Assembly (NCBI GenBank): GCA_951406725.2
Contig: OX597817.1
Span: forward strand, 38,316,001 to 38,380,000
Source: Octopus vulgaris
Taxonomy: Eukaryota
DNA length: 64,000 nt
Direction: 5' to 3'
Part shown: piece after piece, positions 9,886 to 42,235 of the stretch
Layout of the letters: every line of letters starts with the position of its first letter
Numbering within the stretch: the first letter of the stretch is position 1
Position numbers and translations under genes: made by a program
Notes under the pieces: model-generated
The model's database searches: none
What the model was told of the DNA's origin: nothing
The model's input: the letters and a program-made list of their open reading frames with translations, nothing else

Positions 9886-10109
9886 AACTACATTCAATGT
9901 ATTAGCGTTCACATGTGTATGCATGTATGTATGTATATATATATATATATATATATAACATAAGGGACTAAAGCCATCTGAATATGGCTAGGGACAGGGC
10001 AGGGTGGTGGGGGTGTTACTGTTGCATTTAGCCCCAGGCGAACATCGACGTCACCAGAAAGGCTCGACACCGTCACGGTGCCCTTAACCTGCAAAGGGAG
10101 GTAATTCCC

Positions 10110-10191
10110 CGATGAAGCGGAAACCACACACGGACCATGGTTTCAAGGTGTATTGCCTATCGTCGGCGTGTGGTAGGCTTCCGCTTCCTCG
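10110..10191 (-). ncRNA. Extended type I hammerhead ribozyme, copy 1
   Basis: Minus strand: cgaggaagcggaagcc-UAC-cacacg CCGACGA uagg caauaca ccuu GAA ACCAUGGU C cgugug-u-gguuuccgcuucaucg. Stem I is 6 bp + internal loop + 12 bp. Stem III is palindromic. GUC site with predicted cut between 10133 and 10132. Confidence 0.78.
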
Positions 10192-10469
10192 ACGAATTCT
10201 CACTCTGCAGGATATTCATATATAGATTTTCAAGCAAAATACATTTGCTGATTTCGAAAATCTGTTCGAAAGCAATAATAATTCTCTAAAAGAGATATAG
10301 ACAGTAACTGCTCGATAACATAAGGGACTAAAGCCATCTGAATATGGCTAGGGACAGGGCAGGGTGGTGGGGGTGTTACTGTTGCATTTAGCCCCAGGCG
10401 AACATCGACGTCACCAGAAAGGCTCGACACCGTCACGGTGCCCTTAACCTGCAAAGGGAGGTAATTCCC

Positions 10470-10551
10470 CGATGAAGCGGAAACCACACACGGACCATGG
10501 TTTCAAGGTGTATTGCCTATCGTCGGCGTGTGGTAGGCTTCCGCTTCCTCG
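10470..10551 (-). ncRNA. Extended type I hammerhead ribozyme, copy 2
   Basis: Identical to 10110-10191 shifted by 360. Predicted cut between 10493 and 10492. Confidence 0.78.
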
Positions 10552-10679
10552 ACGAATTCTCACTCTGCAGGATATTCATATATAGATTTTCAAGCAAAAT
10601 ACATTTGCTGATTTCATATATATATATATATATAGTACGTTTAAATATTTGTTGTGCAAGATTTTATATTATATATATG

Positions 10680-10916
10680 AAAAATAAGTCAAAATAGAAA
10701 ATGCTAAAATAATTTTATAAAGAACATTTCAGTACCAGTTTCAGTCATTTTGAGACCTTTTCAACTGTAACGGTTAAATAATTAAATTTAGAAAAATTAA
10801 AAGAAATGTTTTTTTTTTAAAGAAATATTTGTATAGTGTTCAAATATAAGTGGCATTTTCCTTGTTTCTGCCTTGCTCTGTCTCTCTTGTTCACACTTGT
10901 GGGTTCGAGGTCATTG

Positions 10917-11365: not shown

Positions 11366-11740
11366 CCTTCTACTATAGGCACAAAGCCTGAAATTTGACG
11401 GGAGGGGGCCATTCGATTAGATCAATTCCAGTACGCAACTGGTACTTAATTTATTGACCCCGAAAGGATGAAAGGTAAAGTCGACCCCGGCAGAATTTTA
11501 ACTCAGAACGTAGCAAAGGGGGAAATACTGCTAAGCGTTTCGCCCGGCGTGCTAGCGATTCTTTTCTACTATAGGCACAAGGCCTGAAATTTGGGGGGAG
11601 GGGGCCAGTCGATTAGATCAACCCCAGTACGCAACTGGTACTTAATTTATCGACCCCGAAAGGATGACAGGCAAAGTCGACCTCGGCGGAATTTGAACTC
11701 AGAACGTAGCGGCATCAGAAATACCGCTAAGCTCGCCGCC
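11366..11740 (-). mobile_element. Two tandem partial SINE family A copies
   Basis: ctactataggcacaa.gcctgaaattt...aactcagaacgtagc repeated with a period of ~197 bp. Confidence 0.8.
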
Positions 11741-15712: not shown

Positions 15713-16219
15713 CTATATATATTAAACTAAACTTTCAAACTCATACACAAATTCAAACACATTCATAAATTTAGGGGTTTAGGGTTAGGGTTAGGGTTAA
15801 GGTTTTATAGTTAGAATTAGGGTTAGGGTTGGGGTTTTAGGGTTAGAGTTATGGAAAAAAATGAAAAAGCTGAAGTTGTGTATGGCAGGTTTGGTAGCCT
15901 TCAACTAACACTATCTCCTCCGAGACCCTGCGGTGCAAGTTGACCAAAATTGAGAGTATGATAGAAGAAAGCTTCTAATTCAAATCGGACCATGTTAACA
16001 CTAAAAATTATTTACACCAAAAAGGTGCTTTTTTTCTATGAAAATACCTATTTTTTTACGATTTTTTGACTGCTGCGTCGCCATTTTCGGTGTATTTCAA
16101 CCAGAAAACTGTTCACTTAAAGAGAATATCAAGCTACATAATGCGAAATTTTTACTTTTCAAAAATTCCAATTCTAAAGTGTCGAAACAAACCCGAACAA
16201 CGCCGGGCGATACTGCTAG
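15713..16219 (+). mobile_element. Non-autonomous Helitron-like element containing degenerate TTAGGG repeats
   Basis: 3' hairpin cccgaacaacgccggg ends ~8 nt before CTAG|T (16216-16220). Degenerate (TTAGGG)n at 15771-15850. The 5' boundary is approximate. Confidence 0.65.
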
Positions 16220-17034: not shown

Positions 17035-18989
17035 TATATATATATATATAATTAGGTTGGGCGGTGCAAACAGGAAAAATAGAAATGAAAAACATACCCT
17101 TTTATTAATACTGATTCATGGCGAGTTGGGGCTCTCTGTAATTGTAACGCGTGCTGAGAAAGGTTAGGCTATTATGCTAATCCAGAAACCGGTCCACGTG
17201 AGTCCAAATACTTGAATGTATGCTGAAAGATTGTCTTAGCCCGTTTGCCTTTCGACGGTTAATTTCTGTAGTTATCATCAGTGTATTTTGGCAATTTAAA
17301 TAAGAGTTTTGACTGTTATTTCCAGCAGGTAGACATACTTAGTATGCCCTTTAATTAATTTTAACTCTTTTATTAATATTTATCAGAAGCAATAGTAAGG
17401 CAACATCCGAAAGTTTCGTGTGTTAACACTTATCAAATTATATATATATATATAGTTTGGTAAGAGCCATGTATATATACACACACATGTAAACAATGAG
17501 CGCACGTGTGTTTGTGTGTGTGTGTGTGTGTGCGTGTATGTGTACGCGTGCGCGCGCCTGTTTGCATATATTTATTTATTAAAGTGACAAAATTGTCGTT
17601 ACTGATGGAATGCTTTTTGAGAATCGGATCGAATTCACACCACTACACAGTTCCCTCTCCCCTGAGGACCAGATGTCATGTGCGTCTTCTAATCGGTCAC
17701 AATCGAGAACCCAGTGAACTTCCTGTATCTTGCAAGACATCTCTTTGAACTTTGCCAAAATTCCACCTCTTAATCACCATCAAGTTTTCTGGGTATTTCT
17801 TTTTCTTTTTTTATTTTAATCTTTTTCATATATTTTTTGCTAATTTTTAGCCGGAAATTGTCAATGAGTATTTTAGAATACTCTTTGATTTCGCACTAGA
17901 ATGACAGACTTCCGTCCGGTGTAGAACGACCCGACATCAATTTGAAGAATTCGAAAGTGGAATTTGGAAATAGAGGCTAAATGCTTTATTCGAGAGAAGC
18001 CTAGTTAAAAAAAGAAAGTAATCTTGCACAATATTCTTCCTTTCGGTATTTTATTATAATGTGGCCATATTTTAGTGATGGACTGGCAAGATCGTTAGTG
18101 TGTTGGAGAAAGTGCCTTGGGTGTTTCGTTAGTTTTTAAGTTCTGTGTTCACATCTAGCCCAGATCATCTTTGTCTTTCATCCTTTTGAAGTTGATAAAA
18201 TAAAGTATCAGTTAAACACATAAAGCAATTTAATCGGTTCATCCTTTCCTACAAACTAGCTTTGCATCTATGTTAGAAGTGTTTATATCATGGCCCTATT
18301 GAAAACATTTTATAAGCATGTGTACATGAGAAATTTATGAGCACATATTATGAGAAATATATGTTCACACATTAACACGATTACCCCTCCCTAAATAAAT
18401 ATACATATACACATAAATATACATACACACATGCATCGAAGAACTCAGACACATAAGCACATTCTCACACACGTGCGTGCATGTGTATGTGCATTGGCTA
18501 TGTCAATGCATAGATTAGCACATCATCGCGACTAGATTCATATCTGAGAAATAAATCTGATATGGTTAAAAGATTCTTCGAAGAGAATCTGGACGTATAT
18601 AACTTACTGGACATTATATACGTCTATATTCTCTTTATTGAAACTTTTGGTTGTATATCTCCTAGAGAATGTCTTAGTAGTAACTTAGATGTGCGACTAA
18701 TAGTAGCGATGTGTTAATCTATACATTGATTATATTGATATATTTAGAGCTGTATTGAATACGCCTTTTTTATTCATTCAGGTAAAACCCCTGTACGTTA
18801 CAATACAATATTCCCATCCTACATCGTGCAGCAACATATGGGATTGTCATATCAGATTTTATATCATATGATTGATGGCATGTCACAGTATAGTAGTTAT
18901 AACTATGGATCTGTACGATTTAATACACTCCACAGCTAGTTAATAAGAAAATTAACCAAAATTACAAAAACTATAGCATAAATACTAAC

Positions 18990-41984: not shown

Positions 41985-42235
41985 TAGTATTAATTAATAG
42001 TAGAAGATGGATTTCGTATTAGACTTTTATCAGATACAACACATGTTTCGACCCATCAGTCTGGGTCTCTTCAGGTACATTGATAAAGAAGTCTCACGAG
42101 AGATTTTTAATGTCGGCTGACTTGCTGTTATATGCCCATCAAGTTCGAGAATGAATAAAAACAAAATATATGATAGAAATGCAAAAAAAAAAAAATCAAA
42201 TATGAGCATAGAAAGCATACGTTCAAGTTTAGATA
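41985..42235 (-). mobile_element. ~250-bp HHR-bearing repeat, copy 2
   Basis: Direct repeat of 40697-40932, abutting (GT)n. Confidence 0.75.
42034..42078 (-). ncRNA. Canonical-core minimal type I hammerhead ribozyme
   Basis: Minus strand: guac CUGAAGA gaccca gacuga uggguc GAA ACAUGUGU U guau. Perfect 6-bp stem II, GUU site. Confidence 0.75.

Follow-up and report, generated by a model that had tools for sequence, protein, structure and literature searches.

We found that the minus strand of positions 10110 to 10191 of the window (the whole 64,000-nt stretch of Octopus vulgaris DNA analyzed here) carries a type I hammerhead with C instead of U at core position 4. The genomic copies indicate that C4, itself derived from U4, is the consensus state of a subfamily that is young and dispersed; pattern matching places the C4 core in about 1,290 copies, nearly identical, of a 360-base element. 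On balance, we think that this hammerhead, which belongs to a young non-LTR retrozyme with C4 fixed, likely self-cleaves slowly, aided by loop docking and by stem III pairing in tandem transcripts, and that it thereby releases 360-nt monomers that are predicted to circularize and to be copied by the enzyme of a Penelope-like element (PLE). The added value of the analysis is a clean PLE end signature on a retrozyme together with a natural series of core variants.

The hammerhead in the window

An initial annotation of this DNA had described a CCGACGA core, a stem II that opens with a mismatch, an interrupted stem I and a palindromic stem III, and all of these parts were recovered once the motif was read on the minus strand, an orientation that the annotation did not give. 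The core strand C3 C4 G5 A6 C7 G8 A9 runs from 10166 to 10160, with C4 at 10165. Stem II (10145 to 10159) consists of 3 bp, AGG (10158 to 10156) paired with CCU (10148 to 10146), on a mismatched U·U base (U10.1 at 10159 and U11.1 at 10145), and is closed by the loop CAAUACA (10155 to 10149), of which CAA is conserved. Core residues G12 to A14 (10144 to 10142) are followed by the palindromic stem III, ACCAUGGU, at 10141 to 10134 and by C17 at 10133; cleavage is predicted after GUC, between 10133 and 10132. Stem I comprises an inner helix of 6 bp (10172 to 10167 with 10132 to 10127), an internal loop (loop 1) in which UAC (10173 to 10175) lies opposite U10126 and which is the predicted docking partner of loop II, and an outer helix of 12 bp, G·U included (10187 to 10176 with 10125 to 10114).

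With a NUH cut site and three stems around the core, open at stem I, the motif is a type I hammerhead, and it matches the consensus core at every position except U4. A second hammerhead, identical to the first, lies on the same strand at 10470 to 10551 (C3 at 10526; predicted cut between 10493 and 10492). The two hammerheads are spaced by 360 nt, and the two 300-nt copies are 100% identical. A core-like stretch on the plus strand (10109 to 10125) was rejected as an opposite-strand hammerhead, since only 2 bp of stem I could form and the stretch is not kept in sister subfamilies.

The hammerhead stretch folds with a z score of -5.3, and none of 200 shuffled sequences was equally stable. In the predicted minimum-energy fold, stem I is kept and the core is misfolded, forming an extended hairpin; by prediction, the hammerhead fold lies 9.7 kcal/mol above the ensemble in a model that excludes tertiary contacts. 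A pairing lock on the core was considered as the reason for C4 and is not supported, because the predicted folding was equal for the two cores (9.73 kcal/mol for CC versus 9.71 kcal/mol for CU). Among 16 subfamily representatives, 98.7% of the stem cells were paired and 29 had changed on both sides, a covariation that none of 500 shuffles reached; since the representatives were chosen by a pattern that fixes stem II and outer stem III, this signal is that of stem I and inner stem III. Rfam returned no hammerhead hit at the gathering threshold, nor, on positions 9900 to 10700, at an E value of 5 or below. The C4 subfamily is thus missed by Rfam and would also escape descriptors built on CUGANGA, and retrozyme counts made in these ways may be too low.

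C4 in the genomic copies

The assembly searched comprises 2.8 Gb in 227 contigs. A DNA search gave at least 196 matches from the best 40 of 790 candidates, nearly all of them 97 to 100% identical. The initial annotation had proposed that genomic copies be aligned to see whether C4 is the family consensus; among the copies, C4 was present in 67 of 67 complete cores from 30 loci. The exact C4 pattern had 1,293 matches in the genome versus 1 for a reversed-pattern control. The exact U4 pattern had 36 matches, of which only 1 came from the window's family, and that one was a truncation junction without a stem I partner. The remaining U4 matches belong to older, separate hammerhead families whose stem III is the same palindrome and whose stem II is often mispaired at its base. 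A dead single mutant of a CUGA family is therefore ruled out for the window copy, as C4 is fixed (1,293 matches versus one junction), and the outcome that the annotation had named as fatal to its reading, a CUGA family consensus with a dead copy here, did not occur.

Several of the older hammerhead families lie at loci L031 to L060; their cores are canonical (CUGA), their stem III is ACCAUGGU and many occur as inverted pairs. The 10.1-11.1 mispairs in these families are C·A, A·A and U·A.

History of the core and sister subfamilies

Sister subfamilies were retrieved through motifs outside the ribozyme, which yielded 22 near-full units from 17 loci, 66 to 87% identical to the window. Core positions 5, 6, 9, 12 to 14, 15.1, 16.1 and 17 were invariant in all 22 units. 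With 58% of background columns reaching at least 90%, the invariance of nine core positions has a naive P of about 0.008, the units being related, which suggests that the core is under selection. U4 was likewise invariant in 22 of 22 units; by this measure C4 is a genuine defect, which moreover occurs alongside the mispair at the base of stem II. In these units, which were retrieved without use of the ribozyme, the loop letters were also conserved in 22 of 22, as U-R-C/U in loop 1 (U, a purine and C in 22 of 22 each) and CAA in loop II. Of the docking between the stem I internal loop and loop II to which the annotation had pointed, the conserved letters are thus confirmed; the contact itself is a prediction from PMC6155905.

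The 3-8 pair varies across the clade among U-A, U·G and C-G. A U3-A8 pair is a known natural covariation according to passages of PMC3088659 and PMC4209133; for a natural hammerhead with U3·G8, no account was found in the literature searched. U3U4 cores with G8 and U11.1 had 544 matches in the genome, and non-U3 cores with G8 and U11.1 had 1,256, the first 100 of which were all C3C4. For cores with A8, 856 matches were obtained, and inspection by eye of the first 100 gave 96 U3U4, 3 C3U4 and 1 U3C4. Cores with G8 and C11.1 gave 140 matches, the first 100 of which comprised by eye 70 U3U4, 26 C3U4, 3 C3C4 and 1 other. C3C4 is the largest group, with 1,256 of about 2,800 pattern matches. U3C4 in the context of the window subfamily had 0 genome matches, which, together with the single case among 100 A8 cores, indicates that C4 was amplified only with C3-G8.

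A tree was built from units covering at least 320 nt (36 rows), with positions 3, 4 and 8 masked and a midpoint root. The window's C3C4 group came out as a single clade (100/97) within U3·G8 lineages, and these in turn branch among U3-A8 lineages. This nesting implies that the window core represents a swap of U3·G8/U4 for C3-G8/C4, not a single U4C change. A second C3C4 lineage, with 66% identity and a C·C stem II base, had a separate origin in the tree; on this topology C3C4 is derived and arose twice. Positions 3 and 4 also change together in contigs of two other deep sequencing runs (9 and 2 contigs). Along the branch to C3C4, T>C makes up 3 of about 8 changes. A-to-I editing written into the copies was considered and is unsupported, with A>G at 11 and T>C at 11 distinct sites.

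A lineage with a C3·A8 mismatch has been mobilized at least twice (L222/L223 and L265). A canonical C3U4G8 subfamily with G10.1-C11.1 and stem III ACCGGU forms arrays, and the pattern with U11.1 fixed gave 10 matches for the canonical C3U4 core. The idea that the canonical C3U4 core never expands in the clade is ruled out by the C3U4G8 subfamily (26 of the first 100 of 140 matches), and because this subfamily expanded, a rule of one defect for each subfamily does not hold in general.

Stem III and the dimer question

The initial annotation had read the palindromic stem III as a dimer type, and the clade bears this out. Eight stem III centers (CAUG, CUAG, UAUA, UGCA, CGCG, CG, CUGG and UGCG) were found, each self-complementary and each at no fewer than two loci. 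Among the first 100 matches inspected by eye, self-complementary centers numbered 98 for U3U4 with G8 and U11.1, 98 for G8 with C11.1 and 90 for A8, where 5 further matches had a central U·U. The chance level is 36 of 256 tetramers with G·U allowed, and since the copies are not independent, the argument lies in how many distinct variants there are. CA and CAUA, each found at two places, and several single cases were exceptions; those with CA, which stand beside CG copies in the tree, look like point mutants. The inner stem III pairs of the 16 representatives (CG in 10 and UA in 6; AU in 10, UG in 4 and UA in 2) change on both sides, although the innermost pair cannot form within one hairpin. 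The eight self-complementary sequences, with double changes where a single hairpin cannot pair, indicate selection on the dimer-type stem III and support double-hammerhead pairing as a conserved trait of the clade.

For the window's stem III, two copies paired as an 8-bp duplex have a predicted energy of -11.2 kcal/mol versus +2.9 kcal/mol for the 2-bp hairpin within one copy. On the other hand, the double hammerhead of the window's two-copy transcript is predicted to be only 1.6 kcal/mol better than two monomer folds. The dimer is probably clearly faster than the monomer.

The annotation had gone further and proposed that the weakened core works only with both tandem copies, so that cleavage would be restricted to multimers. 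This proposal fared less well. Dimerization would repair stem III, not position 4; sister subfamilies with C3U4G8 or U3-A8 have equally or more dimer-dependent stems; the predicted gain from dimerization is small, as given above, and C4 leaves the predicted folding unchanged; and invertebrate retrozymes are reported in passages of PMC7229834 to cleave well as monomers. It is quite unlikely that C4 is what would restrict cleavage to multimers. Nor is the architecture as unusual as the annotation had claimed. A short palindromic helix III is the norm among metazoan type I hammerheads, as described in part of PMC4209133 and in the legend to Fig. S8 of PMC3088659, and axolotl HHR_Amex2 is described in the same passages of PMC7229834 as having U·U at the base of stem II and 2 bp in stem III.

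The retrozyme and its insertion ends

Both hammerheads lie in an insertion of 1.8 tandem units of 360 nt on the minus strand at 9955 to 10616 (locus L012), which is truncated at its 5' end at unit position 63 and ends 3' at a fixed site, unit 360. One full unit (unit positions 1 to 360) spans 9958 to 10317. The (TA)n target, which is strand-neutral, occupies 9926 to 9957 at the 3' end of the element and 10617 to 10634 at its 5' end. (TA)n flanks most of the other loci as well, and a target-site duplication is unreadable inside such a microsatellite. No coding frame of 150 aa or more was found over the element, and the unit, lacking a frame, is thus a non-autonomous passenger. Noncoding tandem units of about 150 to 450 nt without LTRs, each with a type I hammerhead, at many dispersed loci are what defines non-LTR retrozymes in the sense of PMC7229834, and the element is almost certainly one of them.

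We examined 39 insertions (19 top search matches and 20 hand-picked multicopy loci), which had 66 3' ends: 35 at unit 360, 30 at units 42 to 48 and 1 cut by the edge of its locus. Thus, 65 of the 66 ends lay at two sites 47 nt apart. The 47-nt stretch between these two fixed sites (unit 360 and unit 47), here called the tail, corresponds in the window to 10271 to 10317 on the minus strand, and the sites are putative starts of reverse transcription. Loose (TA)n ends at 10271 were also found in other sequencing runs. Of the insertions examined, 27 were inverted, a share that is a biased estimate because 20 of the 39 loci were hand-picked; 25 of these 27 had one end at each site. The 5' ends were scattered, with 2 of 66 near the cut versus 2.0 expected, and the lack of a pileup there indicates that linear monomers are not the main template. 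Sister subfamilies show the same insertion ends.

Arrays reach up to 15 units. Among 33 multiunit insertions of the C4 clade, about 15 haplotypes were distinguished, a few of which differ only by indel alignment, and the haplotypes were mostly uniform across all units and both arms, for up to 14 units. Since a new change would stay in a single unit if uncut multimers were copied, uniform arrays point to a monomer step. The haplotypes suggest a monomer bottleneck after C4 was fixed, most simply excision and circularization, and repeated template jumps could also produce the uniformity.

Several loci depart from uniform tandem arrays. At L064 (G000:C1:48889900-48893000) a variant alternates, being present in units 2 and 4 of 5, which fits rolling on a dimeric circle. 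The arrays of L069 (G000:C14:72705000-72711500) and L070 (G000:C5:33080000-33083500) are mosaics of haplotypes that are pure elsewhere; they do not fit one circle and may reflect template switching among RNAs, recombination or assembly error. At L111 (G000:C1:94318000-94327999), a sister-family unit went into a LINE fragment and was later duplicated in tandem four times, with a period of about 1,380 nt.

The unit is covered by contigs of sequencing runs guessed to be RNA, in which strand, ends, and circle versus tandem array cannot be separated. At 9985 to 10050 of the window, contigs and depth of runs X18 and X20 were far above those of the hammerhead region (depth being distinct from copy number). 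This excess at the conserved 3' region hints that further, more abundant families share the priming region.

Relation to Penelope-like elements

In the parts of PMC8557442 that describe PLEs, insertions consist of partial tandems with an inverted truncated arm and a tail of 30 to 40 nt at one end. Such ends have been explained by two adjacent internal start sites with nicking and extension of both target strands, as set out in passages of PMC11167929. The marks of this type were all found here: the tail, the two fixed 3' sites, the inverted 5'-truncated arm and the microsatellite targets. Because the two-site tail, the inverted arms and the (TA)n targets match the PLE pattern, mobilization by a PLE enzyme follows as the reading of these ends, and insertion is very probably driven by such an enzyme.

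The likeness extends to details given in passages of PMC11167929, PMC8557442 and PMC4209133. PLEs, like the element, occur in partial tandems with an inverted 5'-truncated arm and a tail at one end, in AT-rich or (TA)n targets, and with a hammerhead of type I lying upstream of the start sites. Unlike PLEs, the element lacks an RT/GIY-YIG frame and builds arrays of as many as 15 units; its hammerhead is full size with docking loops, whereas the PLE hammerhead is a minimal type; and its tail of 47 nt exceeds the 30 to 40 nt described for PLEs.

The genome contains a young, intact PLE family in which many frames of 781 aa, with a GIY-YIG domain, are preserved. When the unit was compared with the 3' flank of this one family, no similarity was found. 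Among 248 loci, none had a PLE frame joined to the unit, and 3 contained PLE fragments, which were not contiguous by coordinates; in this sample of one intact PLE family and 248 loci, an autonomous partner was not found. Loci L150 to L168 (e.g., G000:C6:133346826-133347467) represent the 781-aa family, and a pattern search found no hammerhead in their fetched 3' flanks.

PLEs were named a strong candidate for retrozyme mobilization in passages of PMC7229834. A recent preprint (10.64898/2026.07.22.740005) argues for a link between retrozymes and PLEs, in the parts available, from co-occurrence and pLTR trees, and the word "tail" is absent from its text between introduction and discussion. As to which enzyme moves animal retrozymes, earlier support thus came from co-occurrence and pLTR phylogeny; here, a PLE two-site tail signature was found in almost every examined locus, and exact priming sites are predicted.

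Cleavage and mobility

We propose that minus-strand transcription through the array would be followed by slow cleavage after GUC, which would be tolerated as C4 came with a restored C3-G8 pair. Loop docking and paired palindromic stems III in tandem transcripts would aid cleavage, and the two cuts in a transcript of the window could release one 360-nt monomer. A host ligase would close the monomer to a circle, as proposed for other retrozymes. A dimer of the PLE GIY-YIG/RT enzyme would then nick both (TA)n strands and prime at unit 360 and unit 47, and rolling round the circular template would produce uniform tandem arms joined head to head. The C4 core likely cleaves in vivo. According to passages of PMC3088659, U4C lowers activity in vitro in a viroid that is still infectious, and U·U is the best-tolerated mispair at 10.1-11.1. 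In part of the preprint 10.64898/2026.07.22.740005, 8 of 9 Xenopus retrozyme dimers showed no cleavage in vitro.

The C4 ribozyme could instead be almost dead, with uncleaved multimers copied by the PLE enzyme and loss of cleavage neutral or helpful, which we consider unlikely. It would agree with passages of PMC11167929 in which cleavage is dispensable for PLE insertion in vitro, ribozyme mutants of an anole PLE being without effect on insertion and unprocessed RNA being the main substrate. The lack of a 5'-end pileup at the cut would also agree, as would the mosaics L069 and L070, the movement of the C3·A8 lineage, which indicates that near-dead cores can move, and the fact that the weakest-looking core is that of the largest group (1,256 of about 2,800). 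However, new single-base haplotypes became uniform over arrays and arms repeatedly after C4, which needs a monomer step, and C4 was amplified only with the strongest 3-8 pair; that the other core positions have not decayed in the C4 clade weighs little, as the clade is too young. A C4 monomer that cleaves well enough through loop docking, with the palindrome only adding rate and no restriction to multimers, is rather unlikely. Conserved loops and the small predicted advantage of the dimer speak for it, as do passages of PMC7229834 in which monomers of coral and mussel retrozymes cleave at about 0.8 and 0.1 per min and the term invertebrate type is used for a stem III of 2 bp with a tetraloop. 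Monomer-only cleavage, however, leaves unexplained why the palindrome was kept through eight sequences, and in the same passages the axolotl Amex2 monomer, which shares the U·U base and the 2-bp stem III and has no reported core change, was cleaved to only 22% in an hour and the dimer much more.

Help from outside the C4 RNA, either cutting in trans by a U4 relative in a mixed double hammerhead or a required protein chaperone, is very unlikely. U3U4 subfamilies with identical stems I and III do occur in the same genome (L126 to L131), and the anole PLE ribozyme was cleaved only with protein added, according to part of PMC11167929; however, stem I is predicted to be locked in a long intramolecular hairpin, and such U4 relatives are fewer and have a U3·G8 defect of their own. 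Tandem arrays of near-identical units could also suggest a satellite that was multiplied as DNA, through unequal crossover or through DNA circles, with the hammerhead as a passenger. This is extremely improbable: the end structure contradicts it, as the 3' ends are fixed, 5' truncation varies, 5' arms are inverted, the targets are (TA)n and the copies lie on many contigs, all of which indicates target-primed reverse transcription, and the stems covary.

Beyond slow cleavage aided by docking and stem III pairing, a wider reading can be offered tentatively, though we regard it as doubtful. The clade would be a natural tuning series in which the 3-8 pair walks through U-A, U·G and C-G, and C3-G8 would have been traded twice for C4 and a pyrimidine mispair in stem II. 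A slow cut gated by multimers or protein would protect the circle and might have given the largest recent burst, and a PLE dimer would prime both strands at two sites of the circle, the genome recording retrozymes as PLE cargo.

How much self-cleavage retrozymes need becomes testable with the young sequence series, as the genome has thousands of copies of close relatives, counted for each variant, that differ in the palindrome of stem III and at positions 3, 4, 8 and 10.1-11.1. Such a series of core variants could tell whether slow cutting is selected, tolerated or irrelevant.

Nearest known systems

The viroid U4C variant is a type III motif, and the hammerheads of Schistosoma mansoni Sm-alpha and newt satellite 2 carry the canonical core. 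The loops of the octopus hammerhead are, we presume, letter-for-letter like those of Sm-alpha. As described in PMC6155905, Sm-alpha and newt satellite 2 resemble the octopus hammerhead in having 6 bp in stem I and, next to them, an internal loop that docks (here by prediction) on loop II, and newt satellite 2 is activated by dimerization through stem III.

In passages of PMC7229834, the closest systems are metazoan non-LTR retrozymes, above all axolotl HHR_Amex2/Rtz_353 and the mussel repeats of 350 to 390 nt. They share with the octopus element a type I hammerhead of canonical size, noncoding tandem units (170 to 400 nt), the U·U stem II base, the 2-bp stem III with a tetraloop and the potential for dimers. 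They differ in that the octopus element has C4 fixed in the core, in a clade whose 3-8 pair is U-A, U·G or C-G, and the two fixed sites and inverted arms were not found in those passages. Circles and cleavage were shown for those retrozymes and are predicted for the octopus element.

The viroid U4C variant (Ambros and Flores 1998, as cited in a passage of PMC3088659) has the same core change, with a reduced activity that is sufficient in vivo. It is a variant of an infectious RNA, whereas here the change is fixed in the largest subfamily, in a type I motif and together with a U·U mispair. Precedents therefore exist for each feature, U·U base and dimer activation in axolotl and U4C in the viroid. 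In the octopus hammerhead literature, as covered by titles and the beginnings of abstracts, there was no account of the element, and passages of PMC11014351 and PMC6466107 contain nothing on C4.

Other features of the window

An unrelated type I hammerhead-like motif lies at 17148 to 17200 on the plus strand, with core CUGAGAA (C3·A8), stem III ACCGGU and a 5-bp stem I. It is part of an element about 400 nt long that is flanked by (TA)n runs, one at about 17030 and one at about 17440. At 42040 to 42080 on the minus strand, a PLE-type minimal hammerhead-like motif has a long stem II and the palindrome ACAUGU and ends near a (CA)n run. A repeat of 196 nt is present twice at 11368 to 11732, the copies being 88% alike; we take the repeat to resemble a common SINE/LINE 3' end of such genomes. 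A degenerate interstitial (TTAGGG)n run is present at 15779 to 15851.
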